A stretch of 64,000 bases of DNA from a virus (Duplodnaviria; Heunggongvirae; Uroviricota; Caudoviricetes), in IMG/VR virus record IMGVR_UViG_3300029288_000059, positions 1 to 64,000 of that record. The stretch is one strand, 5' to 3'. Below the pieces are notes generated by a model that was given only the letters and a program-made list of their open reading frames with translations, searched no databases and was not told the origin of the DNA. How positions within the stretch are numbered: position 1 is the first letter of the stretch; every line of letters starts with the position of its first letter. Position numbers and translations under genes: made by a program. This document shows, piece by piece, positions 3,001 through 64,000 of this stretch.

Positions 3001-4299
3001 TTAAGAATGGAATTTACGCCTAATCTTAACTCCTTTAGGACGTGATAATTTGACTTTGTTATTATGACAATGTAAATCACTACCTATATAAGTAGCACAA
3101 CCCTCTAAACTTGTTAATTGGTTATAACTACAATCTAAATCACCACCTATATATGTAGCACAACCATCTAAACTTGTTAATTGGTTATTGTTACAGTAAA
3201 AATTACCACCTATATAAGTAGCACAATATTTTAAACTTGTTAAGTGGTTATTATAACAACCAAGACTACCCCCTATATAAGTAGGACATCCTTTTAAACT
3301 GGTTAAGTGGTTATTATAACAACCAAGACTACCACTTATACTAGTAGGACAACCCGTTAAATTTGTTAATTGGTTATCGTTACACCATAAATCACCACCT
3401 ACTTTGGTGGGACAACCTTCTAAACTTGTTAATTGATTATTACCACAATCAAATATACCGCCTATGCTTTTGAAATGAGGTAACTTGGTTAATCCCATAT
3501 CGTATAAATCTACATCTCCTTTAACAACAATATCTTTCATCTCGTATAATTGTTTGAGTGTATATATTTTGTTATCTAAACTAACCAGGCCTATATTTCT
3601 AATATCTTTAACTTTTTTAAAGTTATTCAAGTTAATAAAAGTTGAAATATACTCTCTATATTTCTCAACAACTGGTTGATTTTGCTTACCTTTTATCTGT
3701 TCTAATATATTATCAGTTACTTCCATAGTAGCATGGGGTTCGTTTTTAGTATCACGTAATGAGTAAATTATAGTTTTACCACTAGTAACTTTAGTATCAT
3801 AAGTCCCTTTACCAACACAATGTCCCATGTGTTCTGACTCGTAATCAAGTGCAGTAGGAGTAAGCAATTGTAATATCTTATAACCATCACTATATGTATG
3901 TATTAATTTAGTACCAGCTACGCCATCTTGTGTATTTGTTACTTTTTGTTTATTAAACCAAGTTTCTGCTGTTTGATACGCCATATCAATATTTTTAATA
4001 TTATTAAATGTGGCTGGGTTGGGATTACTAGCTGTTAGCCAGTCCCTTATATGTGTTAATTGATTGGTTAAGTCGTCATTTGGTTTAAACTTACGTAATG
4101 TATCTTGTTCTTTGTCTTTAATATCCCATTCATTGGTTAATTGAGTAGTTATTTTAGACATATATTTTGTATTATTAGATATTTCTTTATAAAACAGTTT
4201 ATACATATATGGATTGGTTATATATTGCTTCAAGTAATCACCTAAAGCAGTATCATTATAGACTCTATATTCGTTCAATAACTTTAAGATGTTTACCAT
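3001..4299 (-). CDS. PcfJ-like domain plus 21-aa leucine-rich-repeat protein (paralogue A)
   Basis: L..ES..MGHCVG...IYSLRD...PHAT.EV...QIKGK.N motif; six CxxNxLTSLxGCxTxIGG repeats. Confidence 0.8.
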   Translation of the reverse strand: MVNILKLLNEYRVYNDTALGDYLKQYITNPYMYKLFYKEISNNTKYMSKITTQLTNEWDIKDKEQDTLRKFKPNDDLTNQLTHIRDWLTASNPNPATFNNIKNIDMAYQTAETWFNKQKVTNTQDGVAGTKLIHTYSDGYKILQLLTPTALDYESEHMGHCVGKGTYDTKVTSGKTIIYSLRDTKNEPHATMEVTDNILEQIKGKQNQPVVEKYREYISTFINLNNFKKVKDIRNIGLVSLDNKIYTLKQLYEMKDIVVKGDVDLYDMGLTKLPHFKSIGGIFDCGNNQLTSLEGCPTKVGGDLWCNDNQLTNLTGCPTSISGSLGCYNNHLTSLKGCPTYIGGSLGCYNNHLTSLKYCATYIGGNFYCNNNQLTSLDGCATYIGGDLDCSYNQLTSLEGCATYIGSDLHCHNNKVKLSRPKGVKIRRKFHS

Positions 4300-17700: not shown

Positions 17701-18168
17701 TTACGAAATCGGTATTCGTCTAGGTCTTTTTTCTTCCGGTATGTTCTTAATAACAAAGATAGACAATAACCCATCAATAAAGGATACTTCATTCACTTCA
17801 AAATATTCACATAACAAGAACTTACGAGTGATATCTTTTTGTGAAATCCCTTTATGTAAGTACTCAAGTTGTAATGTATTGGGTTGTACAGAATGGGATT
17901 CATCATCTTCACTAGGGATGTATTCTTCCGAATTATTAAACATTTCATCATACTTAGCATCAATCAATAACTGATTATCATTAACCGTTACTGTGATATT
18001 ATCTTTCTTGAATCCAGCCATTGCCAATTCGATTTTGTACTTATCATCAGTTAGTTTGATGATATTATATGGTGGATATGTTGGTTCAATTGAGTTTAAA
18101 GATGTTAGCTCATTCAAAATATCAAATAAGCCAATACTGTTACGTGAATAGTAATTATTAGTATGCAT
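17701..18168 (-). CDS. small heat-shock protein (Hsp20, IbpA-like); start refined to MHTNN
   Basis: YPPYNI...IELAMAGF...YLHKGIS...DGLLSI....PEEKRPRRIPI. Confidence 0.92.
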   Translation of the reverse strand: MHTNNYYSRNSIGLFDILNELTSLNSIEPTYPPYNIIKLTDDKYKIELAMAGFKKDNITVTVNDNQLLIDAKYDEMFNNSEEYIPSEDDESHSVQPNTLQLEYLHKGISQKDITRKFLLCEYFEVNEVSFIDGLLSIFVIKNIPEEKRPRRIPIS

Positions 18169-18255
18169 TATAGAACCCTCCATAGGAATGCAAAGGTCAA
18201 TTTATGTTTCATATCCCAATATGGCAATATGAATAGTAGGAACATCCTACTCATA
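18169..18255 (-). promoter_or_regulatory. ROSE-like RNA thermometer in the hsp20 5' UTR
   Basis: Three hairpins; the last is ACCUUU-G(bulge)-CAU/AUG-GAGGGU and occludes the SD. Confidence 0.65.
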
Positions 18256-18325
18256 CTATTTAGTACGGATTTTCAAAAAAACAAGTAAATACATATAAGA
18301 AAAACATAAGCATGGAGGTTTTAAT

Positions 18326-18775
18326 ATGCGTAAAACAGGTAAGGCTGGTAAAGCACTAATAAAATACTATGAAGGTATTAAACTAAAGGCATACTTATGT
18401 CCTGCCGGTATTCCAACTATTGGTTATGGACATACCAAAGATGTCAAAATGGGGATGGTTATAACCGAAAGTCAAGCAGATGAATTCTTCGACATTGACT
18501 TAACCGAGTTCGAACTACAAGTTAGTGATGCAGTTAAAGTACCGTTATCACAAAATCAATTCGATGCATTAGTTGCATTCACCTATAATGAAGGTATTGG
18601 TAATCTTAAAACATCTACATTATTGAAGATGATTAATGCACGTGATTATTTTCATGCTGCCGACCAGTTCATTAAATGGAATAAAGTTAAAAATCCAAAG
18701 ACTGGTGTGTATGAAGTGTGTGATGGTTTGACAACTCGTCGTTTAGCCGAAAAGAAGCTATTTATGACAATATGA
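18326..18775 (+). CDS. GH24 phage lysozyme (endolysin)
   Basis: EG..L.AY.CPAG..TIGYGHT, QFDALV.F.YN.G, GL..RR..E. Confidence 0.93.
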   Translation: MRKTGKAGKALIKYYEGIKLKAYLCPAGIPTIGYGHTKDVKMGMVITESQADEFFDIDLTEFELQVSDAVKVPLSQNQFDALVAFTYNEGIGNLKTSTLLKMINARDYFHAADQFIKWNKVKNPKTGVYEVCDGLTTRRLAEKKLFMTI

Positions 18776-18781
18776 TATTAT

Positions 18782-18811
18782 TTGGGGTGAGATATCTCAC
18801 CCCAATCTTTT
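18782..18811 (+). terminator. intrinsic terminator
   Basis: TTGGGGTGAG-ATAT-CTCACCCCAA followed by TCTTTT. Confidence 0.75.
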
Positions 18812-18854
18812 ATTAATACATTTAAAAACATTATCCCAATATACAAACAAACTA

Positions 18855-18882
18855 TTGACTTAGTTTGTTAATGTGTTATACT
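18855..18882 (+). promoter_or_regulatory. sigma70-like promoter
   Basis: TTGACT-16-TATACT. Confidence 0.65.
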
Positions 18883-18914
18883 TAAATTATAAACACAAAC
18901 ATCGGGATACGCAA

Positions 18915-19214
18915 ATGGAACTCAATATAACATTTAATTACAAACAACCTAAATTAGATACTCGTTTTTCTACTTGTACTAATGAAACTCTTCATACATT
19001 ATGGGATGAATTAGTTAGTATAGGTAAAACACAACAGTTAAAATCTTGGTTTCGGCCTTTAGATAACAGCACTGTTGGGTTTAATAATCTCTTTAATTAC
19101 ATACTTACTGTCTATCCAACTTCTACGTTATTAGCTACCGCACTAATGATATTCTGTAATGAACATAATTTGATGGATGAATTAAATTATTGGTTAGATA
19201 ACAACTCGAAGTGA
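18915..19214 (+). CDS. hypothetical protein (start refined to MELNI)
   Basis: ORF downstream of the promoter. Confidence 0.6.
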   Translation: MELNITFNYKQPKLDTRFSTCTNETLHTLWDELVSIGKTQQLKSWFRPLDNSTVGFNNLFNYILTVYPTSTLLATALMIFCNEHNLMDELNYWLDNNSK

Positions 19215-19223
19215 GATTAACAA

Positions 19224-20189
19224 ATGTACAGAACCGCGTCACAAACCAATAGCAGACGAAGTATAAACGCCGTAAGTCAAGGGCGGTATCCAATAACGTA
19301 TGCTAAGAAAATATTACAGACTAAACTATTAAAGATATTCAATGTAAAGTATTCATTAAAAGAATGTGAGTATCTATTGAAAACCGAAGGATTTACTGGT
19401 GAATGGCATCATACTTCCCCTGTATATAATAAAACAAACTATTATAATATTCGAGCCGTTATAAGATATCTTCATACTTATAGTAAACCATATAAAAAAA
19501 CAAAAGTACAACAACCCGGCATCACTCGATATAGAGCTCACGATATTCTAACATCCCACGATATTGCATCACAACGAAAAACAAATATCTTTAATCACAT
19601 CACCCGTACCTTATTATTTTTATTAAGCAGTGATGAATTAAACTTATATTTTGGAGTAAATTATGATGTGCATGTATGGCAAAGTATGAAGAATACTTAC
19701 ATAAAACAATGTCAGGAACGACATAATATTGTTGCCATTGCCAATTCTAATCAATTTAATAAACTATTTAAACAAGTAGCAGTAAAGAATGAGTATGACG
19801 AAATAAAGAAGAAGAATCGAGATGAATATAATAAAAAGTTAAATGAAGTACGAACATTTGAATTACAATTTAATAATAACTTACTTCGACTTGATGCCAA
19901 TGCTTTAAATCTTCACTTCAATGTAAATTATAGTGTGAATTTTTGGGATACGTTCAAATTAAGGTATGAACGCAAACAAAAAGCGAAAGCAGTGATTACC
20001 TATATTAATAAGTTTAGAAATGAGGAAGTCTGTGATGACACACATAAAATCCAATATAAAATAGCTTACGAATTATACTATAATAATATGATTGTAGTAG
20101 ATAGTAGCAAACTTAACCTATATTTTGGTATTGGATATAGTAAAGAAATATGGCGTTTAATTAAGAAGGACTACTATGTTCCTTCTTAA
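19224..20189 (+). CDS. hypothetical protein with EWHHTS motif and three LNL(Y/H)F.V.Y...W repeats
   Basis: Internal repeats visible in the translation. Confidence 0.7.
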   Translation: MYRTASQTNSRRSINAVSQGRYPITYAKKILQTKLLKIFNVKYSLKECEYLLKTEGFTGEWHHTSPVYNKTNYYNIRAVIRYLHTYSKPYKKTKVQQPGITRYRAHDILTSHDIASQRKTNIFNHITRTLLFLLSSDELNLYFGVNYDVHVWQSMKNTYIKQCQERHNIVAIANSNQFNKLFKQVAVKNEYDEIKKKNRDEYNKKLNEVRTFELQFNNNLLRLDANALNLHFNVNYSVNFWDTFKLRYERKQKAKAVITYINKFRNEEVCDDTHKIQYKIAYELYYNNMIVVDSSKLNLYFGIGYSKEIWRLIKKDYYVPS

Positions 20190-24627: not shown

Positions 24628-25236
24628 TTAACTAAGTTTAAATTTATTCATTAACAACCAAAATAAGTCTTTAGTAGCAGCAATATCGGCTGATGCATCA
24701 TGCCATTGAATTTCTTGTCCCGTAGAATTAAGATAATAGTTCCACACAGTTGCTAATTTAAAGTTTGGTAATGTTACTCTTTTATAGAATAAATCAACTG
24801 CTGCCATTTGCATTACATCAATATATGGAGTCCAAAAGTAACATCCATAACCATTACCAAACTCTTTATCCTTTTCAGTTTTGGCATTATTTAAAAAGAA
24901 TTGTCTTATAAAGTCTACATCGAAACCACTATTATATCCCACAAACTGGAATTTATCCTGTTTATCAAACTTACTCACATACTTATCTAACATTGCTACG
25001 AATTGAATGAAAACCTCATTAGGGTCAGTGTATGCACTAACAATTTCTTCCGTTAGTCCTGTTTTGGCGACGGCAGAATCAGTTATAATTTGACCGGGAT
25101 AAGGCTTTAAGTGGAAATCAAATGTTTCCACTGTTCGTCCTTCGACCTCAAGTTCACCTGAGATTTGGAGTAATGGTGTTGTTTTACAATCAATACCACC
25201 AGTTTCGGTATCAATAAAAATTATCTTAGTACCCAT
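24628..25236 (-). CDS. DEDDh 3'-5' exonuclease (DnaQ/epsilon-like)
   Basis: FIDTETGG, GYN..FD, H.A.AD. Confidence 0.9.
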   Translation of the reverse strand: MGTKIIFIDTETGGIDCKTTPLLQISGELEVEGRTVETFDFHLKPYPGQIITDSAVAKTGLTEEIVSAYTDPNEVFIQFVAMLDKYVSKFDKQDKFQFVGYNSGFDVDFIRQFFLNNAKTEKDKEFGNGYGCYFWTPYIDVMQMAAVDLFYKRVTLPNFKLATVWNYYLNSTGQEIQWHDASADIAATKDLFWLLMNKFKLS

Positions 25237-25504
25237 ATATATTATGCCCTCGTATTAGTGGTTGATATCCAAATGAATGCATTAACTTCTGTCCAGAACA
25301 GTTGATGTACATACTACTAAACGCCAATGTATGAATAAACTTAAATTGCGTCATAGAAAACATTTCATCATGACTAACAATTAAAACGTCACCAAACATA
25401 TTCGTTATATCCCTACTAATAATATTAGTATCCGTTTGCATCCGAAAATAATAATCTTCTCCCTTAGTAGAATATTGTTGATATGGTGATAATAGACGCC
25501 TCAT
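25226..25504 (-). CDS. RxLEPY-family small protein (MRRLLSPY)
   Basis: N-terminal motif plus FKFI motif. Confidence 0.6.
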   Translation of the reverse strand: MRRLLSPYQQYSTKGEDYYFRMQTDTNIISRDITNMFGDVLIVSHDEMFSMTQFKFIHTLAFSSMYINCSGQKLMHSFGYQPLIRGHNIYGY

Positions 25505-45448: not shown

Positions 45449-45464
45449 TATATTTATAAATATA
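45449..45464. promoter_or_regulatory. palindromic bidirectional late promoter TATATTTATAAATATA
   Basis: Identical to 33785-33800; lies between divergent genes. Confidence 0.75.
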
Positions 45465-46222: not shown

Positions 46223-47521
46223 ATGGTAAACATCTTAAAATTAATAAACGAATATAGGGTCTATAACGATACTGCTTTAAGTGACTACTTGAAACAATAC
46301 ATTCAAAACCCATATCTTTATAAGTTATTTTATAAAGAAATATCTAATAATACCCAATATATGTCTAAAATAACATCTAAACTTACTAATGAATGGGATA
46401 TTAAAGACAGAGAACAAGATACATTACGCGAATTTGAACCAAATGACAACTTAACCAATCAATTAACCCATATAAGGGACTGGTTGACAGCTAGTAATCC
46501 AAATCCAGCCACATTTAACACTATTAAAAATATTGATATGGCTTTTAATATAGCCGACACGTGGTTTAATAAACAAAAAGTGACTAATACACAAGATGGC
46601 GTATCAGGCACTAAATTAATACATACATATAGTGATGGTTATAAGATATTACAACTGCTTACTCCAACAGCACTTGATTACGAGTCACAACACATGGGGC
46701 ATTGTGTGGGTAAAGGGACTTATGATACTAAAGTTACTAGTGGTGATACGATAATATACTCATTACGTGATACTAAAAATATACCCCATGCCACATTGGA
46801 AGTAACTGATAACACACTTAAACAAATAAAAGGTAAGCAAAATCAACCAGTTGTTGAGAAATATCGCGACTATATAACAGATTTTATTAATCTTAATAAC
46901 TTTAAAGATGTTAATGATGTTAAAAATATTGGCATGATTAAATTAGATAACAAAGTATATACACTCAAACAACTTTATGAAATGAAAGATATTATTGTAG
47001 AAGGAAATGTTGATTTATCGAAGTTGGGATTAACCACGTTACCTCATTTCAAAAGCATAGGCGGTATATTTGATTGTGGTGATAACAAATTAACAAGTTT
47101 AGATGGATGCCCAACTTATATAGGTGGTTATTTAGATTGTAGAGGTAACCAATTAACAAGTTTAAAGGGTTGTGCTACTTATATAGGTGGTAGTTTTGAT
47201 TGTCGTTATAACCAATTAACAAGTTTAAAGGGATGTCCTACTAGTATAGGTGGTGGTTTTGTTTGTAGTTTTAACCAACTAACAAGTTTAGAAGGTTGTG
47301 CTACCCGTATAGGTGGTGGGTTTCATTGTCGTTATAACCAATTAACAAGTTTAAAGGGATGTCCTACTAGTATAGGTGGTGGTTTTGTTTGTAGTTTTAA
47401 CCAACTAACAAGTTTAGACGGATGCCCAACTTATATAGGCGGTATATTTGATTGTGGTAATAACAAAGTTAAATTATCACGTCCTAAAGGAGTTAAGATT
47501 AGGGGTAATTTTTATAATTAA
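46223..47521 (+). CDS. PcfJ-like domain plus 21-aa LRR protein (paralogue B)
   Basis: Same length as and colinear with 3001-4299. Confidence 0.8.
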   Translation: MVNILKLINEYRVYNDTALSDYLKQYIQNPYLYKLFYKEISNNTQYMSKITSKLTNEWDIKDREQDTLREFEPNDNLTNQLTHIRDWLTASNPNPATFNTIKNIDMAFNIADTWFNKQKVTNTQDGVSGTKLIHTYSDGYKILQLLTPTALDYESQHMGHCVGKGTYDTKVTSGDTIIYSLRDTKNIPHATLEVTDNTLKQIKGKQNQPVVEKYRDYITDFINLNNFKDVNDVKNIGMIKLDNKVYTLKQLYEMKDIIVEGNVDLSKLGLTTLPHFKSIGGIFDCGDNKLTSLDGCPTYIGGYLDCRGNQLTSLKGCATYIGGSFDCRYNQLTSLKGCPTSIGGGFVCSFNQLTSLEGCATRIGGGFHCRYNQLTSLKGCPTSIGGGFVCSFNQLTSLDGCPTYIGGIFDCGNNKVKLSRPKGVKIRGNFYN

Positions 47522-48475: not shown

Positions 48476-49208
48476 TGAAGATTGTCTTATTGGATTAAAA
48501 CGTATTCCTGATAAGTCGATTGACGCTTGTATTACAGACCCACCGTATTCATTAAATAAAGATTATGGTAATGATTCAGATAAGTTATCAAAGGCAGATT
48601 ACTTAGCATTTATGTATGAGTGGATTGATGAAGTTGATAGAGTATTAAAAGATAATGGTAGTTTTTATATCTTCTTGTCATGGCAATATAGTCCTGAGAT
48701 ATTTTCATATATTAAAACAAAGATGAATATGGTTAATGAAATTATATGGGACCGTAGAGTTCCTAGTATGGGAGGGTCTACAAGAAGTTATTCATCAGTA
48801 CATGATAATATTGGATTCTTTGTTAAGGGTAAAGGATATACTTTTAATATAGATGATATTAGAATTCCTTATGATGAAGAAACAAAAAAGAAACGGTCAA
48901 GAAAACGATTTGAGGGTGCCAAATGGTTGGAACTAGGTTGTAATCCTAAAGATGTATGGTCAATTAGTAGAATACATGGTCAATCACAAGAACGTCAACC
49001 CCATCCTACCCAAAAACCATTAGAGTTGATTAACCGTTTAGTATTAGCAAGTTCAAATGAGAATGATACAATATTAGACCCGTTTCTTGGTAGTGGTACC
49101 ACTGCAATTTCCTGTATAAATTTAAAGAGAAATATTATTGGATTTGAATTGAATCCAATATACTATACTCAAGTACTTAAAAGAATACAGGATAATAGTA
49201 ATGGATAA
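48465..49208 (+). CDS. DNA methyltransferase, N4/N6 beta class
   Basis: TDPPY before HPTQKP and DPFLGSGTT. Confidence 0.92.
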   Translation: MIYNEDCLIGLKRIPDKSIDACITDPPYSLNKDYGNDSDKLSKADYLAFMYEWIDEVDRVLKDNGSFYIFLSWQYSPEIFSYIKTKMNMVNEIIWDRRVPSMGGSTRSYSSVHDNIGFFVKGKGYTFNIDDIRIPYDEETKKKRSRKRFEGAKWLELGCNPKDVWSISRIHGQSQERQPHPTQKPLELINRLVLASSNENDTILDPFLGSGTTAISCINLKRNIIGFELNPIYYTQVLKRIQDNSNG

Positions 49209-50226
49209 TTTATTTGAGCGAGCGATAGTATTTTCCGATTTACATTTGGGATTGAAGAATAATAGTAAGGAACATAATGTAGATTGTACTAAGTATATTG
49301 ATTGGTTAATTAAAGAGAATAAAACTCTTAAGGCGGAAACATTATTATTCCTTGGTGATTTTCATCATGTTAGGAATGCCATATATACGAGTACATTGGA
49401 TTATAGTATTCGAATTTTACGCAAATTATCAAAGAATTTTAAGGATGTATATTTCTTAGTTGGTAATCACGATATGCACTTTCGTGATAAACGTGATATT
49501 ACGTCATTAGAGTTTTTACGTGAATATCCAAATATACACTTAATTGATGAACCTACTTCGGTTGGTAATTGCTTATTACTTCCATGGTTAATTGATGATG
49601 AATGGAAGGAAGTTCCGAAGAGTGAAGCCAAATATGTATTTGGTCATTTAGAATTACCGGATTTCTTCCTCAATGCAAAAATAGTTATGAGTGACAAGGG
49701 TGAGCTAAATAGTAAATTATTAATGAACCCCGATTATGTATTCTCAGGACATTTTCATAAACGTCAAAAGAGAGATAAGGTTGTATATATCGGGAATGCA
49801 TTCCCTCATAATTATGCCGATATTGGGGATGAGAATGAACGTGGCTTTATGTTTTTAAAATGGGACGAAACACCAAGATTCCATACATGGCCGGAAACAC
49901 CAAAATATATGAATGCAAGTCTTGTTTATATATTGAATAATTTAGGAATGTTGGATTCCAAAACATTTTTAAAAATACAAATTCCAAGTGATATAAACGC
50001 ACTTGATATTGCTTATGTAAAAGAAACATTGTTATCATATTTTAAATTAAGGGAAGCATCCTTAGTTTTTACAAATGACGTATATGATAGTATAGAGGGG
50101 ACGATTGATGATATGGACAATGAAGAATTTGAAAGCATAGACGATATAATTATTACTTTACTTCGTAACGTAGAATCAAGTACACTAGATAAAGAAATGT
50201 TAGTGGACTTATATGGGATGTTATGA
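49201..50226 (+). CDS. recombination nuclease gp47 (Mre11/SbcD-like)
   Basis: SDLHLG, LGD, GNHD, FGH, SGHFH. Confidence 0.9.
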   Translation: MDNLFERAIVFSDLHLGLKNNSKEHNVDCTKYIDWLIKENKTLKAETLLFLGDFHHVRNAIYTSTLDYSIRILRKLSKNFKDVYFLVGNHDMHFRDKRDITSLEFLREYPNIHLIDEPTSVGNCLLLPWLIDDEWKEVPKSEAKYVFGHLELPDFFLNAKIVMSDKGELNSKLLMNPDYVFSGHFHKRQKRDKVVYIGNAFPHNYADIGDENERGFMFLKWDETPRFHTWPETPKYMNASLVYILNNLGMLDSKTFLKIQIPSDINALDIAYVKETLLSYFKLREASLVFTNDVYDSIEGTIDDMDNEEFESIDDIIITLLRNVESSTLDKEMLVDLYGML

Positions 50227-50227
50227 T

Positions 50228-50434
50228 ATGTATCGGTTAGACCAAGGAAGTAAGTTAGAAATTTATCCTACATTGACATTACCTAATAAACAAGGTGGCT
50301 GTAAAAATATTATATGGAAAACATCAATATTTAACCCTATTAAATATAACGTACTAACTATCTACAATGGTAAAGTAGTGAAGTTTAAATATATTAAAGG
50401 GAATCATAGGGTGATAGATAGTGATAACGTTTAA
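50228..50434 (+). CDS. small protein between gp47 and gp46, loose RxLEPY-family member
   Basis: MYRLD...LEIYP; KFKYIKG motif. Confidence 0.5.
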   Translation: MYRLDQGSKLEIYPTLTLPNKQGGCKNIIWKTSIFNPIKYNVLTIYNGKVVKFKYIKGNHRVIDSDNV

Positions 50435-52223
50435 TAAGTTATACATTCGTAATTTTATGTCTTTTGGTAACGTAACGGAAGAGATTGAATTAACAAAAGA
50501 ACAAGTAACTCTTATATTGGGTGAAAACCGTGATAAGGGAATTAATACGGGTGAACGTAATGGTGTAGGTAAGTCTTCTATCGCTATGGCATTACATTAT
50601 GCAATTACGGGTAAATCGATTGGTAATAAGATTAAACTATCCAATCTTATTAATAAGACGAATCGAAAGAATATGGAAGTCACACTCGAATTCTCCAAGA
50701 ACAATGTTCAATATAAGATTGAACGTGGTCGTCATCCTGAATATTTAAGATTTTATATACAAGATAACTTAGTTGTGGAAGATGCTGCACAAGGCGAAAA
50801 GAAAGATACTCAATTAGAGATATATAGACATTTGGGTATGAGTGCTGAACTGTTAAACCAAACAGTATTATTAACAACTTATGTTGAACAATTTCTCGAC
50901 CAAGGTGGAACAGAACAAAAGAACCTAATAGAAGAGTTACTTGGTATATCACTACTCACACAAAAGTCCGATAAATTAAAAGAGTTGATAAAAGTTACAA
51001 AACAAGCAATAGAACAAGAAGAATTTAAGATTAAAACTATCAATGACTCTAATAATAGATTATTAGAAGTTTATGAAGATGAACAAAATAGATTGTCATC
51101 TAAATTAAAAGAATGGGATATAACACATACTAATGCTATACAAAATTTACTATTGGATATAGAAACATTATCCACTGTTGATATTGAAAAAGAATTACAA
51201 AACCACGAAACAATGACTACGTGGAATATGTTGAATGATATGGTTATTAGAGCTACTAAAGATAAGTATTCATTAGAGAATAATCGTAAGTCTATACTAC
51301 GTGATATTAACACCATATCAGCTCGTATAGTGGAGATTGAAAAGAATATACAATGTGTCAATGAAGATATTTGTCCTACTTGTAAGCAGACTATATCCAA
51401 TAAGGAATTGATGATACAGACATTTACTAAGTCTTTAAATGATGAAGTAACTAAATTGGAAGGTAAGAAGAAAGATATTGTTGATGTTGATAATCGTATA
51501 AGTGAATGTATGGATAACATTGTTGCTATGCCACCCAAACCAACATTGTCATATAATAACATCAAAGATGTTTATTCCCATAAGGATAGATTACAGGAAA
51601 AAGTTAATAAACTAACTCATATACAAAATGAAGTTAATCCTTATATTGAACAGTTACAAAATAAACAAAAAATCCCGTTACAGGAGATATCACGTGAGGT
51701 ATATGATGACCTTAATAATATATTAACTCATCAAGTATTTTTGTTTCAAATGTTGTCATCCAAAAGTAGTTATGCACGTAAGCAAATATTGGAACGCAAT
51801 CTACAACACTTAAATATAAAACTTAAAAAGTATTTGGAGAAGTTGGGATTACCACATAAAGTTAAGATACTTGGTGATTTAAGTGTCGAGATAAACCACT
51901 TAGGGGAAGAATATGATTATGCGAACCTCAGTCGAGGGCAAAGAACAAGATTAACACTGGCTCTAATGTTTAGTTTTCGTGATGTATGGGAAAGCAGCAA
52001 TGATTCCATTAACTTAATGTTTATGGATGAAATTATTGATTTAGGATTAGATGATGCCGGTATGGAATCTGCATTAGAAATATTAAAGAGTTTTGCTCGT
52101 GATAGAGGTAGAAATATATTTCTTGTATCACATAAAGATAGTTTATGCTCACGTGTTAGTTCTACTATGAAAGTTATATACGAAGTTGGATTTAGTCGCA
52201 CTGAATGGGTTAATAATGTATAA
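50421..52223 (+). CDS. recombination ATPase gp46 (Rad50/SbcC-like)
   Basis: NFMSFG, NGVGKS, CPTC hook, LS.GQ, MDE..D, VSH. Confidence 0.92.
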   Translation: MITFNKLYIRNFMSFGNVTEEIELTKEQVTLILGENRDKGINTGERNGVGKSSIAMALHYAITGKSIGNKIKLSNLINKTNRKNMEVTLEFSKNNVQYKIERGRHPEYLRFYIQDNLVVEDAAQGEKKDTQLEIYRHLGMSAELLNQTVLLTTYVEQFLDQGGTEQKNLIEELLGISLLTQKSDKLKELIKVTKQAIEQEEFKIKTINDSNNRLLEVYEDEQNRLSSKLKEWDITHTNAIQNLLLDIETLSTVDIEKELQNHETMTTWNMLNDMVIRATKDKYSLENNRKSILRDINTISARIVEIEKNIQCVNEDICPTCKQTISNKELMIQTFTKSLNDEVTKLEGKKKDIVDVDNRISECMDNIVAMPPKPTLSYNNIKDVYSHKDRLQEKVNKLTHIQNEVNPYIEQLQNKQKIPLQEISREVYDDLNNILTHQVFLFQMLSSKSSYARKQILERNLQHLNIKLKKYLEKLGLPHKVKILGDLSVEINHLGEEYDYANLSRGQRTRLTLALMFSFRDVWESSNDSINLMFMDEIIDLGLDDAGMESALEILKSFARDRGRNIFLVSHKDSLCSRVSSTMKVIYEVGFSRTEWVNNV

Positions 52224-52235
52224 CTTGGGGGTAAT

Positions 52236-52424
52236 ATGAAAAGAGCAATAGAACCTTATATTGTTAAGGTTAATCAATATAATGATGATGTACCTAAATA
52301 TAGTAAATCTATAATCACAAAACGTGATACTGATATTCGTTGCAATGAATTACCTGATATGTTTCATAATACTGTGAGTATAAATGATTTTAAATATACG
52401 AACAACATACTAATACGATGGTGA
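52236..52424 (+). CDS. RxLEPY-family small protein (MKRAIEPY)
   Basis: Shared N-terminal motif; FKY. Confidence 0.65.
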   Translation: MKRAIEPYIVKVNQYNDDVPKYSKSIITKRDTDIRCNELPDMFHNTVSINDFKYTNNILIRW

Positions 52425-52430
52425 CAATGA

Positions 52431-52856
52431 ATGTATAGAACGCTGGAACCATATAATGAACTAGAATCAATAACAAGGAGGTTCTTTGCACATGGTCATC
52501 TAACTCCTAGTAATGTGAACAAAGCACGTTTAAATGTATCGAAGGGATTGCCAGTATATCAATATATTGATGGTAATGGGTTTTATGGAATTGTTTGGAG
52601 TGGAGTAAAGATTAGTAATCTTATTTCACGTTTTGAAATAAAAACATTCGTTGGTAACTCACATGAAGTTGAACAGAATTTTAAATATGTACTTGGTAAT
52701 TTTAAATTGTTAAACTCACCAACTAATAGTTATATATCAAACTTTAATAACTGTCCTTTGTTTATAGGTGGTAAATTTAGTTGTGATGTCCCGTTTAATA
52801 TCGGACTAACTATTAATGAGAAATGCCAAATTGAAATTTATTCGGGTGAGACATGA
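52431..52856 (+). CDS. RxLEPY-family protein with a degenerate LRR
   Basis: MYRTLEPY; FKYVLG; NFNNCPLFIGGKFSC. Confidence 0.7.
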   Translation: MYRTLEPYNELESITRRFFAHGHLTPSNVNKARLNVSKGLPVYQYIDGNGFYGIVWSGVKISNLISRFEIKTFVGNSHEVEQNFKYVLGNFKLLNSPTNSYISNFNNCPLFIGGKFSCDVPFNIGLTINEKCQIEIYSGET

Positions 52857-53080
52857 GACGCACATTAGAACCCATTAATATGATGATTATAATATCAGAA
52901 CCAATAAATCACTATATTAATGCTATTGAACGTACGAATTCATTTAGAGATGATTGCTATACATCAAGTTTTAAATTTCGAACTTATGATTATAAGTTCA
53001 TTGATTTCGGTATACAACATCCAATACTCCTATTGCCATATAACTCTTTTGGACTGAATGATTATTATTTTCACTATTAA
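52853..53080 (+). CDS. RxLEPY-family small protein (MRRTLEPI)
   Basis: Shared N-terminal motif. Confidence 0.62.
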   Translation: MRRTLEPINMMIIISEPINHYINAIERTNSFRDDCYTSSFKFRTYDYKFIDFGIQHPILLLPYNSFGLNDYYFHY

Positions 53081-53143
53081 CTATTTCAACCTTATATGTT
53101 ATGATGGATAACATTGAATGTTTATTAATAATGAGGATGGTTA

Positions 53144-53470
53144 ATGAAAAGAAATTTAGACCCATATATTAAGTATCCAAACTATTATACATTTGATAAA
53201 CCATGTATTCATTATTTATTACAACGTGAAATGATAGAAACAGTAACCAATGTCATTAGTCGTCCTTGTCAAACAATCATACTTGATAGTAATAATCATT
53301 TAAGTAGATTGAAATATGTGAGTTGTGAGTACGTTAGTTTATATGATATGAGATGGTCTTCTCGTTTGAATCAACCATTTATTGGCTACAAGTATTCTCA
53401 TCTTACGGGTGAGTGGGTTGATACTAAGTCATATGGGACAATAATAAAAGGTCATATTATGAATGTATAG
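53144..53470 (+). CDS. RxLEPY-family protein (MKRNLDPY)
   Basis: Shared N-terminal motif; LKYV. Confidence 0.65.
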   Translation: MKRNLDPYIKYPNYYTFDKPCIHYLLQREMIETVTNVISRPCQTIILDSNNHLSRLKYVSCEYVSLYDMRWSSRLNQPFIGYKYSHLTGEWVDTKSYGTIIKGHIMNV

Positions 53471-53819
53471 AAACTTAGAACCAACAAACAATGAAATACT
53501 AATGGGTTGTATGGCTGGAATATTCCCCAATGATAGAACTACTGATATTAAGTTTCCCACCCCAATCATGCTTGGCTCACCATTAACATCGAATTATAAT
53601 TTTCATTTAATCTGTAATAGTAGATGTAACAATGTTGTTACTAGACATAAATGTATTTTATTAATTAATAATAGTAATATTATGGGTCATGTTTTGAAGT
53701 ATATTAATGGAACATTAACCATTCGCCCAGTAGAACGATGTAAATTTCTAAAAGGTACAAATGGATTTCCAAAATATGTGAGAGAAATAGATTTACGTTT
53801 ACCCTTTTATAATATATGA
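53463..53819 (+). CDS. RxLEPY-family protein (MYRNLEPT)
   Basis: Shared N-terminal motif; LKYING; G.P.YV. Confidence 0.65.
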   Translation: MYRNLEPTNNEILMGCMAGIFPNDRTTDIKFPTPIMLGSPLTSNYNFHLICNSRCNNVVTRHKCILLINNSNIMGHVLKYINGTLTIRPVERCKFLKGTNGFPKYVREIDLRLPFYNI

Positions 53820-53846
53820 TGTTAATTAACATACTGAGTTTAAGAA

Positions 53847-54245
53847 ATGGCTATTAATTCAATACGGTGCTTAGAACCTTATGATATGAGTAAAGCCCAA
53901 AATATAGTAATAGATTGGGATTTATATAGTAGTCGGTATGGTTTTGAGTTGTATTATACCAACATGATAACAAGGGATGATGTTTGTTTAGCAATAATGG
54001 GTATTACGTCATTACCAAAATTTAAGTATTGTGGTGATACTTTTTATGTTCACAATAATAAATTGTCTAGTTTAAAAGGTAGTCCTATTTATGTAGGTGG
54101 CGATTTCCATTGTGAATTGAATAAGTTGACGAGTTGGGAAGATGGACCAATAGTCGTAAATGGGGAAGTTCGTTGTTGTGATAATAAGACAATGATTAAA
54201 TTACCTAAGAATTTATTAGTTAGAGGTAAATTTATAAATGTTTAG
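53847..54245 (+). CDS. RxLEPY-family protein with two clear 21-aa LRRs
   Basis: IRCLEPY; LPKFKY; NKLSSLKGSPIYVGGDFHC. Confidence 0.75.
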   Translation: MAINSIRCLEPYDMSKAQNIVIDWDLYSSRYGFELYYTNMITRDDVCLAIMGITSLPKFKYCGDTFYVHNNKLSSLKGSPIYVGGDFHCELNKLTSWEDGPIVVNGEVRCCDNKTMIKLPKNLLVRGKFINV

Positions 54246-54648
54246 AGAGTTAGAGCCATATAGTGAGAATAGTCTAACAAAACATTACCTTAAGAGGAAT
54301 AATGATTTAGGTTGGTATGATACCGTACCTAACTTAATCGGAAGGGACAATATCTTTATATATAACGGTATATCACATATTGATTGTAGTTTCCTATATC
54401 AATTCGTAGTACCAATATGTGATTTAAAAAATATAATTACTAGACAATCCGTTGGATGTGTTACATTTCAACGTAATAATATTATAATGAAATTCAAGTA
54501 TATGACTAATTCAATTACTTCTAGTGGTGATTGTGGGGCTTGTTGCTGGATACATAGTCATGTATTAACAAACAAGATGAAACAACGTATATTAGATAGT
54601 GGTAATTTTAATAATGGAGTCTATGACGGCACCTTATTTATGGAATGA
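54238..54648 (+). CDS. RxLEPY-family protein (MFRELEPY)
   Basis: Shared N-terminal motif; KFKY. Confidence 0.65.
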   Translation: MFRELEPYSENSLTKHYLKRNNDLGWYDTVPNLIGRDNIFIYNGISHIDCSFLYQFVVPICDLKNIITRQSVGCVTFQRNNIIMKFKYMTNSITSSGDCGACCWIHSHVLTNKMKQRILDSGNFNNGVYDGTLFME

Positions 54649-60832: not shown

Positions 60833-61075
60833 ATGTATCGAGTATTAGAACCATATACGTTGAGTACTCGTCATACTATTAGTGATGCTATATGGGATGA
60901 GAACGATGATGTATCAATGGAGGAACGATTAATTTCTAAATTGCTTCGTTGTCTTTATCAGCCAATAATACGAAACCCCATCATAAAGAATTCATGTAAC
61001 TTTATGGACAGTCATGGTATCTCAAGGCCTATTAAGTATTATCAGTATTATACGCAATCTTCCAATTTAAATTAG
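60833..61075 (+). CDS. RxLEPY-family protein (MYRVLEPY)
   Basis: Shared N-terminal motif; IKYY. Confidence 0.65.
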   Translation: MYRVLEPYTLSTRHTISDAIWDENDDVSMEERLISKLLRCLYQPIIRNPIIKNSCNFMDSHGISRPIKYYQYYTQSSNLN

Positions 61076-62710: not shown

Positions 62711-63046
62711 ATGAGAGAATTTATTGTAGATGTTAGCCATGATGACAATGTGAATGTTTGGGTAGCTAAATGTGATGAGATTCCAGCCATAACCGAATCT
62801 ACTACATTAGATGTATTATATGAACAATTCGCCACGATGGCATCAGAAATAGCCGTATTAAATAAATTGGTTGATAAGATAGAAGATGCGGTCTTTAAAT
62901 ACGAAGGATATGTCATAAACGAAAGTGATGTAGAATTGGCTAAATTCAATCGTGAGTTTATATCACAACAAAAGAGTTTAGATGGTGATTTATTAAAAGT
63001 GATGATAGATAACCGTTATGATTTGTATGAACGTGCCGAAGAATGA
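62711..63046 (+). CDS. DUF1902/HicB-like protein
   Basis: V....D....VWVA..D.IP..TE..TLD.L. Confidence 0.65.
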   Translation: MREFIVDVSHDDNVNVWVAKCDEIPAITESTTLDVLYEQFATMASEIAVLNKLVDKIEDAVFKYEGYVINESDVELAKFNREFISQQKSLDGDLLKVMIDNRYDLYERAEE

Positions 63047-63270
63047 TTAGAGGGCTATCACCATATAAGGAAGAATGTGATGAACTAATTAACTTAGAAG
63101 TTCATAATGATTTTTATCTTCGTGATGTAATATTAGAATATAACGGTAGAAATGTTATTTTGCGGGGTAGTTTGATAATAGTTAGTGCTATAAGACTCGG
63201 ACAGGACCGTAAAAGGTTTAAGTTTTCCAAGTCATGGTTGTATGATTTTAGTATGAGGATGTTCCAATGA
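63043..63270 (+). CDS. RxLEPY-family protein (MIRGLSPY)
   Basis: Shared N-terminal motif; FKF. Confidence 0.62.
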   Translation: MIRGLSPYKEECDELINLEVHNDFYLRDVILEYNGRNVILRGSLIIVSAIRLGQDRKRFKFSKSWLYDFSMRMFQ

Positions 63271-63527: not shown

Positions 63528-63783
63528 ATTAATGTATCGATTCTTGGAATCTTATTTTAGTGAACGGATGTATTGTGATGAACGTACCGTATTTAGATGT
63601 GATAAGAACAAAACATTATCTACTAGTTTATACGTTCGTAATATAACAGATGGTTCGTGTAGTAACATAATATATAGAAAGACATTTAGCGTTGACTTTA
63701 ATACAACATATAATTTAGATTCAAACTATAAGTATTCACTAAGAGTATTATCATATTTAAAAGGTAGAGTTGAACTCGGCTAG
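63520..63783 (+). CDS. RxLEPY-family-like protein (MYRFLESY)
   Basis: Variant N-terminal motif. Confidence 0.55.
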   Translation: MSKLMYRFLESYFSERMYCDERTVFRCDKNKTLSTSLYVRNITDGSCSNIIYRKTFSVDFNTTYNLDSNYKYSLRVLSYLKGRVELG

Positions 63784-63988
63784 GCAATATAAGGATATTG
63801 AAATGAAAGTAATACTATGCACGTTATTAATGTTTATACCCTCAACAACCTCTATACTCGCAGCTGCATGGCTGTCTTATCATGATAAGACAGGATGGGG
63901 GTGGTTTATATTTACTGCAATATTAACTTATGGTGGTAGTATTAAATTTTCAGACGATAAGACGGATAATAGTGATGATGCAAATTAG
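63770..63988 (+). CDS. small membrane protein
   Basis: Two hydrophobic segments, GWGWF. Confidence 0.6.
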   Translation: MNSARQYKDIEMKVILCTLLMFIPSTTSILAAAWLSYHDKTGWGWFIFTAILTYGGSIKFSDDKTDNSDDAN

Positions 63989-64000
63989 AGGTCTTGAACC
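63975..64000 (+). CDS. start of another RxLEP-family gene (MMQIRGLEP), truncated by the window end
   Basis: ATG ATG CAA ATT AGA GGT CTT GAA CC. Confidence 0.55.

Follow-up and report, generated by a model that had tools for sequence, protein, structure and literature searches.

Introduction

The internal proteins of phage T4 (IPI, IPII, IPIII, and Alt) carry a 10-residue capsid-targeting sequence (CTS), and the prohead protease gp21 cuts at L/I-x-E. In the F-box proteins with leucine-rich repeats (LRRs) and in the ankyrin-PRANC adaptors of poxviruses, a constant docking element is combined with a variable repeat domain for binding, and such adaptors form multigene families in parasite genomes. 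Here, we describe a family of small LRR proteins from a jumbo phage that begin with the octapeptide M-x-R-x-L-E-P-Y (the RxLEPY leader), and we compare it to these and other systems. Seven of the genes lie in tandem at positions 52236 to 54648 of IMG/VR record IMGVR_UViG_3300029288_000059. The stretch that we analyzed, which we call the window, is the first 64 kb of this record, a single 289,811-bp contig from an uncultured virus with 31% G+C.

Dozens of small paralogs have been reported in a jumbo phage before: Bacillus phage G has about 35 copies of a zinc ribbon, which is a lineage-specific expansion (PMC7824862). That survey of jumbo phages does not mention LRR expansions (neither "LRR" nor "leucine-rich" occurs in it), and our literature search on the LEPY motif and on LRR expansions in phages found nothing relevant. 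The nearest relatives of the RxLEPY proteins are a family of small LRR proteins from metagenomic phages (PHROGs 7816 and 21719), from the huge phages LR756501-3, and from the Vibrio phages VB_VaC_SRILMA and TDDLMA. These are homologous to the RxLEPY proteins and share the 21-22-residue repeat and the motif of the first strand; their cap reads ICxKYxIxNYTINxDGSIDVDGxVDL...LPLKFxKVxGxFxC.

A preliminary description of the window proposed that the octapeptide is a constant N-terminal docking or targeting tag on rapidly diversifying bodies, and that no described system matches it. The constancy of the peptide and the rapid change of the bodies are borne out, but the tag is not portable: it is confined to one family and to one clade of phages. 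To say that there is no matching system was too strong, as the wider family carries leaders like the T4 capsid-targeting sequence, and the T4 internal proteins are the obvious precedent. Our reading, which we think is somewhat better than an even guess, is that this is a lineage-specific family of LRR binders whose leader would be a common contact, and that it would form a second, differently addressed class of proteins acting in the infected cell.

A lineage-specific family of small LRR proteins

All seven genes of the array belong to one lineage-specific family; they are live and fast-evolving, and they have partly degenerated. The leader itself is not a chance pattern. Among six-frame open reading frames (ORFs) of at least 40 amino acids (aa), R.L[EDS]P. 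occurs 34 times genome-wide, and 32 of the 34 are within a few codons of the start. Of 1117 ORFs, 28 have R-x-L-[EDS]-P within their first 12 residues, as compared to a mean of 0.18 and a maximum of 2 in 100 residue shuffles, and RxLEPY was observed there 20 times, versus 0 in the shuffles. So the observation made in the preliminary description is real. All but two internal occurrences among the 34 head members of the LRR family.

A hidden Markov model (HMM) of the family finds 46 ORFs in the genome. About 40 of these are small proteins with an RxLEPY-type leader (including variants such as RQLNPY and KELEPY), two are fragments, and four are larger proteins of 411-432 residues. In an alignment of 34 members, R3 is invariant; L5, P7, I26, R28, and K45 are each conserved in at least 90%; and positions 2 and 4 vary freely. 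The N-terminal motifs are, in order, MxRxLEPY, NIIxRG, and LPxFKY(V/I)xG. A small member is made up of the octapeptide, a spacer of about 15-50 residues, a cap (NIIxRG(x)VDL...LPxFKY(V/I)xG), 0-7 LRRs, and a C-terminal cap (KLxRPKGxKIxGxFxN). The consensus of the 21-residue repeat is NQLTSLxGCPxYIGGxLxCxx. The genome's commonest 12-mers are the coding repeat of the LRRs, so we rejected them as a regulatory site.

The bodies had been described as nearly unalignable, which does not hold. BLASTP links 25 of 36 members, and an HMM that was built from only the 23 members outside the window (the leave-out HMM) detects every tandem gene but one (52853) at E ≤ 2e-4. With the leader removed, four of the seven are still found at E ≤ 1.2e-3. 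A second motif, (F/L/I)-K-(Y/F), had been noted and is indeed present, but it is the first LRR strand of one family, and the bodies are related. These results imply that the tandem seven are the worn-down end of the family, with several having little beyond the leader and the cap; the gene at 52853 belongs mainly by virtue of its leader, given its E-value (Table 1). The repeat of only one of the seven (53847) passes a strict repeat HMM. Searches of Pfam and PHROGs with the seven genes gave nothing significant.

The canonical members have a recognizable fold. Two of them score above the cut-off of 27 bits for Pfam's LRR_4 (40.8 bits for the 222-aa member, and 29.8 bits). For the 222-aa member, AlphaFold2 predicts a regular strand-turn solenoid (predicted local distance difference test score, or pLDDT, of 88; predicted template modeling score, or pTM, of 0.82), and Foldseek matches it best to the LRR domains of IpaH, SspH, and YopM (PDB 3cvr, 4nkg, 7v8h, and 4ow2; E = 2.6e-4 to 2e-3; template modeling score 0.5-0.63). 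A shared fold was one of the checks that the preliminary description suggested, and it gives an IpaH/YopM-type LRR solenoid for a canonical member; the model of 54238 is all-beta but too poor to interpret (mean pLDDT of 56). No Pfam domain other than the LRR is present in the small proteins, which have 60-222 aa and end in the LRR C-cap, and there is no C-terminal NEL catalytic domain.

Across 78 repeats of 21 residues, N1, L3, L6, and C19 are nearly invariant. Positions 16, 18, and 20, which are alternate residues of the x-L-x-C-x strand, have an entropy of about 2.9 bits, and we take them to be the concave face of the strand. From the sequence data it follows that the solenoid should be a binding module.

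Selection and turnover

In five pairs of orthologs, the ratio of nonsynonymous to synonymous substitution rates (dN/dS) is 0.20-0.44, the frames are intact, and the leader is kept. Ten neighboring core genes have dN/dS of 0.01-0.17 at similar dS. As the preliminary description had it, the bodies evolve rapidly and are not those of decaying pseudogenes, which are ruled out by the intact frames and by dN/dS well below 1. Evolving several times faster than the neighboring genes while under purifying selection is the signature of an arms-race repertoire. Three of the tandem genes have orthologous sequence in a relative's contig (L056): the ortholog of 53847 (P0142) has 66% aa identity, dN/dS of 0.30, and the leader SIRDLEPY; that of 54238 has 78% aa identity, dN/dS of 0.32, and the leader MIRELEPY; and the C-terminal 69 aa of 53463 have an ortholog with dN/dS of 0.44. 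For 52431, no ortholog was found in a set of 5.8 billion proteins.

Two other loci show rapid turnover and a change in the number of repeats. A relative encodes 80 aa with one LRR (L058:1600-1842) where this genome encodes 158 aa with five LRRs (245954-246430). And in a relative that is 87-91% identical, the gene beside the topoisomerase genes (L059:2170-2463, as compared to 249264-249743 in this genome) is a different paralog, which is most similar to the copy at 215 kb. Taken together, the fast-evolving bodies, the constant leader on a tail, and the variation of the concave strand are in keeping with a panel of binders that share a handle.

The leader and where it occurs

We infer that the leader may be a short linear motif on a flexible tail: in the AlphaFold2 model, residues 1-20 have no secondary structure and a pLDDT of 56-59, which is low confidence but not proof of disorder. 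The spacer between the leader and the cap ranges from about 15 to about 50 residues between paralogs and is the most variable segment between orthologs (including one indel). In one member (genome 243614-243994; L001:3615-3995), the leader has a micro-duplication, MVRNLEPYIEPYIEPTPEW, in which the EPYI unit is repeated; this fits a flexible region that tolerates changes in length.

As the preliminary description had suggested, we scanned the genome and its relatives with an N-terminal profile, and the leader is private to this clade of phages. A profile of the first 50 residues has 26 matches among 1.84 billion representative proteins, and every one of them belongs either to this genome or to a metagenomic relative (49-97% identity). 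A scan of IMG/VR for ATGNNNAGANNNTTAGAACCNTA found 43 contigs with one match each, and among these there was no LRR protein and no genome with multiple copies. The matches fall into a few groups of marine phage proteins that are unrelated, so no relative is present there. In three such groups (L011-L053), the protein reads MLRDLEPY, MGRTLEPY, or MGRYLEPY from the ATG that is the putative start; the resemblance is probably due to chance. We also considered an export signal of the PEXEL or RxLR type, but the likeness is superficial, and the phage lacks such a pathway.

Capsid-targeting-like leaders on related proteins

The LRR module is widespread in uncultured phages (120 matches, with E down to 1e-51), and it is also found in huge phages and in the two Vibrio phages. 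Of 112 proteins from this wider family, 67 have [LIF]-x-E within residues 4-14, as compared to 13 in shuffles. The residue after the Glu is Ser in 31 of them and Pro in none; typical leaders are MKxxKLFE↓S and MKxLYE↓S (the arrow follows the Glu). Judged by sequence, these leaders look like the T4 capsid-targeting sequence. One of the huge phages, the uncultured 735-kb phage of LR756501.1, has three tandem genes (L006:1893-4292; 238-289 aa) in which this LRR module follows a different N-terminal domain, common to all three (...VPSGE(V/I)...); this is a parallel expansion.

The phage studied here also has a leader of its own that resembles that of T4: M(V/A)N(I)LKLL(N/H/D)E, with 10 residues ending in L-x-E, is found on nine proteins with unrelated bodies. 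Two of the nine are encoded in the cluster of capsid genes, beside the prohead protease, and an ATAAATA box lies just upstream of three of the eight MVNILKL genes. At the position where T4 gp23 is cut, the capsid protein reads ...YLLE↓SATMG. Also among the nine are the four large family members (411-432 aa), paralogs in which this leader is combined with a PcfJ-like domain (PF14284; 35.8 bits) and with six LRRs like those of the small proteins.

The RxLEPY leader does not resemble a capsid-targeting sequence in two respects. Such a leader has about 10 residues ending in L/I-x-E and is portable across unrelated bodies, but RxLEPY reads x-L-E-P-Y, with Leu at P2, a variable P3, and Pro at P1', and it occurs on one family only. 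Since it is confined to this family, its relatives have CTS-like leaders, and the phage has MVNILKLLNE besides, RxLEPY is a distinct leader. It was possibly derived from a capsid-targeting leader, to judge from an hhalign comparison of the N-terminal profiles that places LEPY on ...FES(Y).

Alternative explanations for the leader

Under the explanation that we prefer, the LRR solenoids would bind varied targets, and the leader would give every paralog the same contact, with one common partner or one processing step. The leader matches T4-type capsid-targeting leaders (L-x-E↓S) in position and may descend from one, changed to x-L-E-P. If so, the RxLEPY proteins would form a second class of small LRR binders in the infected cell, with an address of their own, instead of being ordinary head cargo that is cleaved. 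That the leader is a shared docking or regulatory peptide that acts in the cell is a tentative proposal, to which we give a little less than even weight. A bolder version is that RxLEPY is a new address label, made from a capsid-targeting leader that became uncleavable (by the Pro after the Glu), which would dock about 40 LRR binders onto one machine of the phage or the host; we would be surprised if this were so.

It is also conceivable, but rather unlikely, that the leader is a signal for capsid targeting or packaging, with about 40 LRR proteins being loaded via the scaffold, cut or left uncut by a gp21-type protease, and then injected along with the DNA. In its favor, proteins of the wider LRR family overwhelmingly begin with T4-CTS-like leaders, LEPY aligns with FES(Y), the leader is about 8 residues from the Met with a Glu that is almost invariant, the tail is predicted to be flexible, and the phage has a Peptidase_S77 prohead protease. 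But the motif is x-L-E-P rather than L/I-x-E, with Leu at P2 and a variable P3. Proline at P1' is unfavorable for cleavage by proteases (this is general knowledge about proteases and not specific to gp21), and in RxLEPY it is nearly invariant. The phage's head proteins and the nine leader-bearing proteins use ...YLLE↓S and ...LKLLNE↓, and RxLEPY is never found on unrelated bodies. There is no ATAAATA late box within 70 nucleotides (nt) upstream of any of 36 members, and two members (78991 and 79368) are in an operon behind a strong early-type promoter (TTGACT-N17-TATACT). This promoter is one of 34 nearly identical copies, across the genome, of a strong sigma70-type promoter cassette (TTGACA-N17-TGTTATACTTAAATTATAAACA, then AGGAG and ATG). 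A second alternative is that the octapeptide is a structural piece of the N-terminal LRR cap, folded back over the hydrophobic core of the first repeat, with no role in targeting or docking. We rate this as improbable too, and to about the same degree. It would explain why the octapeptide is always accompanied by the NIIxRG and FKY motifs of the cap and never occurs on other folds, why the hydrophobic L and Y are among the conserved residues, and why the shortest members, at 62-80 aa, consist of little besides leader and cap; also, AlphaFold2's confidence in the tail is low but not very low. However, the great variation in the length of the spacer, between paralogs and between orthologs, does not suit a cap element, nor does the predicted lack of secondary structure in residues 1-20, and relatives with the same cap (IDVDGxVDL...LPxKF) lack the octapeptide and have quite different N termini.

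Finally, the conservation might be at the level of nucleic acid, with the 24 nt after the start codon being a translational operator or a recombination joint that was copied with each tandem duplication. An 8-nt overlap, ATGNNTAG, is common to at least ten tandem junctions, and the arrays were clearly built by tandem duplication. In these junctions, the TAG stop of one gene falls within codons 2-3 of the gene after it; this arrangement is suggestive of translational coupling and of the duplication of whole genes, and it is part of the reason that the motif's Arg codon is skewed to AGA. But the synonymous variation that the preliminary description pointed to is genuine: the codons for L, E, P, and Y fit the genome's usage (chi-square not significant), minor codons included, so the constraint acts on the peptide, and we rejected a DNA-level site on this basis. 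Amino acids 2 and 4 are free, in contrast to the fixed R, L, E, P, and Y, and dispersed single copies retain the motif, as do orthologs at dS of 0.3-0.8. We consider an explanation at the nucleic acid level to be very improbable, and our data support selection on the peptide as what keeps the leader.

Several points weigh against the explanation that we prefer. The docking handle is our best guess from conservation and predicted disorder. Given the low confidence of the modeled tail, L5 and Y8 could instead pack on the first repeat as part of the cap. Without the leader, the homology of the bodies of 52236, 52853, and 53144 is not significant, and these bodies may have decayed or been replaced. 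The comparison of orthologs is limited to five pairs, drawn from one or two metagenomic relatives. The two N-terminal profiles match only weakly in hhalign (probability of 35%; E = 3.9e-4). And the nearest same-strand TATAAATA box to the array in the window lies near 45455, where the plus-strand run of genes that includes the array begins, so late transcription could read through into the array.

The array and its genomic setting

The phage combines a jumbo genome with T4-type genes: gp47/SbcD, gp46/SbcC, a late sigma factor, a clamp loader, a Peptidase_S77 prohead protease, and a gp23-type major capsid protein. IMG/VR classes the contig as linear, and CheckV estimates that it is about 79% complete. 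The nearest named relatives of its gp46 are from PA5oct-like Pseudomonas jumbo phages, at only 39.5% identity. Identical DNA is present in one ENA assembly and in one Logan run, and related contigs with 81-91% DNA identity are present in JGI samples 3300045340 and 3300045339 and in SRR23702513. A blastn search of 50,697 phage records with the DNA of the array found no match. Similarly, a search of JGI metagenomes with gp46 found only distant matches (38%), and a relative's full copy of the array was not recovered.

The array lies within a block of gp47, gp46, polymerase, and clamp loader genes, and starts 12 nt after the end of gp46, on the same strand (Table 1). The seven ORFs are as the preliminary description reported: all are on the plus strand, and they are packed or overlapping straight after gp46/SbcC. 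The dispersed copies are also real, and the window has 12-13 copies in all, which matches what was claimed. Of their coordinates, two need a comment: 63520 is an upstream GTG of the ORF that starts at 63532, and 25226 is the low coordinate of a gene on the minus strand. A copy was also reported between gp47 and gp46. It is there but is degenerate (50213-50434), and with an HMM E-value of 0.33, its membership in the family is inferred from its motifs only.

Table 1. Positions of the RxLEPY genes, their relatives, and associated features, numbered from the first base of the contig
Feature	Position	Strand	Length (aa)	Description	E-value with leave-out HMM (with leader removed)
Tandem member 1	52236..52424	+	62	MKRAIEPY; only leader, IITKR, and DFKY; terminates directly after first-strand motif	1e-4 (0.68)
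Tandem member 2	52431..52856	+	141	MYRTLEPY; long spacer, NFKYVLG, one LRR (CPLFIGGKFSC)	1.4e-10 (1.3e-7)
Tandem member 3	52853..53080	+	75	MRRTLEPI; most degenerate; ATGA overlap with member 2	0.038
Tandem member 4	53144..53470	+	108	MKRNLDPY; NVISRP, RLKYVS	1.1e-4
Tandem member 5	53463..53819	+	118	MYRNLEPT; ATGTATAG overlap with member 4	2e-4 (8e-4)
Tandem member 6	53847..54245	+	132	MAINSIRCLEPY; canonical: NMITRD, LPKFKY, 2-3 LRRs, C-terminal cap KLPKNLLVRGKFINV	2e-33
Tandem member 7	54238..54648	+	136	MFRELEPY; cap segment duplicated (LIGRD..., NIITRQ...MKFKYM), two HMM domains; ATGTTTAG overlap with member 6	1e-6
Dispersed member	60833..61075	+	80	MYRVLEPY; degenerate	0.009
Dispersed member	63043..63270	+	75	MIRGLSPY; NVILRG, RFKFS	
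Dispersed member	63532..63783	+	83 (from ATG)	MYRFLESY; NIIYRK, NYKYS	5e-4
Further member, start only in window	63978..64000	+	86	MQIRGLEPY; continues to genome position 64238	
Dispersed member	25226..25504	-	92	MRRLLSPY; NIISRD, QFKFI	
Degenerate relic between gp47 and gp46	50213..50434	+	73	KNIIWK and VKFKYIKG kept; leader decayed to MYRLDQ	
Large family relative (PcfJ-LRR)	46223..47521	+	432	Leader MVNILKLINE (T4-CTS-like), PcfJ-like domain, six 21-aa LRRs	
Second 432-aa PcfJ-LRR copy	3001..4299	-	432	Leader MVNILKLLNE	
Other PcfJ-LRR paralogs	genome 90542-91777, 107853-109088				
Proteins with leader M(V/A)N(I)LKLL(N/H/D)E	window 46223-47521 (+), 3001-4299 (-); genome 75985, 82939, 90542, 107853, 109123 (+); ORFs 285109-n, 287017-n				
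Examples of ATGNNTAG junctions	window 53463-53470, 54238-54245; genome 65135-65142, 253358-253365, 253761-253768				
Examples of promoter cassette	window 18874 (+), 6266 (-), 22486 (-), 38273 (+); genome 78656 (+)				
gp47/SbcD-like recombination nuclease gene	49201-50226	+			
gp46/SbcC-like recombination nuclease gene	50421-52223	+			

Elsewhere in the genome, TnpB genes (Cas12f1-like_TNB) are immediately upstream of two small RxLEPY arrays (L008:8619-9977 and 18076-19449, which correspond to about 67.7-69.0 kb and 77.1-78.5 kb of the genome). Also, the 154 nt that precede the gene at 69067 recur at four other sites in the genome with 88-93% identity.

Implications and comparison to known systems

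The approximately 46 ORFs are roughly a tenth of the phage's approximately 440 non-overlapping ORFs, all devoted to one family of small binding proteins. Because two alternative leaders are found on homologous LRR modules in one genome, the phage offers a natural experiment on how phage proteins are directed to one destination or another. If the leader does act as a docking peptide, then the partner that all copies share could be pulled down with it, and the LRRs would supply a panel of natural host-factor binders. If it is an uncleavable address label, then the family would be a modular repertoire of adaptors, as with F-box-LRR or ankyrin-PRANC proteins, which might, for example, send many host defense proteins to a common fate. 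And if the leader is only an element of the cap, then the finding is a large but ordinary expansion of paralogs.

How does the family compare to the systems that it most resembles? With the F-box-LRR and ankyrin-PRANC adaptors, only the logic is shared: there is no relationship of sequence or structure, no machinery of the ubiquitin type is implied, and the docking element in the phage would be a peptide rather than a domain. Like the zinc ribbons of Bacillus phage G, the RxLEPY proteins are dozens of diverged paralogs of a small domain in one jumbo genome, but the domain is an LRR and the copies share a leader motif. The closest solved folds are those of IpaH, SspH, and YopM, which have short bacterial-type LRRs of 20-22 residues that serve as variable modules for target recognition beside a constant module. 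In contrast, the phage proteins have just 60-220 residues, no NEL ligase domain or secretion signal, an 8-residue peptide as the constant part, and 20-28% identity to these proteins.

The T4 internal proteins are similar in that a T4-type phage has a short and constant N-terminal leader, with a key Glu, on small and fast-evolving proteins, and those of T4 are directed at the host. Furthermore, the RxLEPY phage has a prohead protease, and the wider LRR family begins with T4-like leaders. On the other hand, the RxLEPY motif is x-L-E-P-Y, while that of T4 is L/I-x-E followed by a small residue; the RxLEPY leader is confined to one family and coexists with the canonical MVNILKLLNE; and some of its members are in early operons. 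The metagenomic family of small LRR proteins is also found in tandem in huge phages, but its N termini are CTS-like leaders or larger domains, MxRxLEPY is not found in any of its members outside of this clade of phages, and the scale of the expansion here (46 ORFs in one genome) is unusual in comparison. What is new here is that homologous LRR modules in a single genome carry two leaders, the canonical one and a second that is non-canonical.

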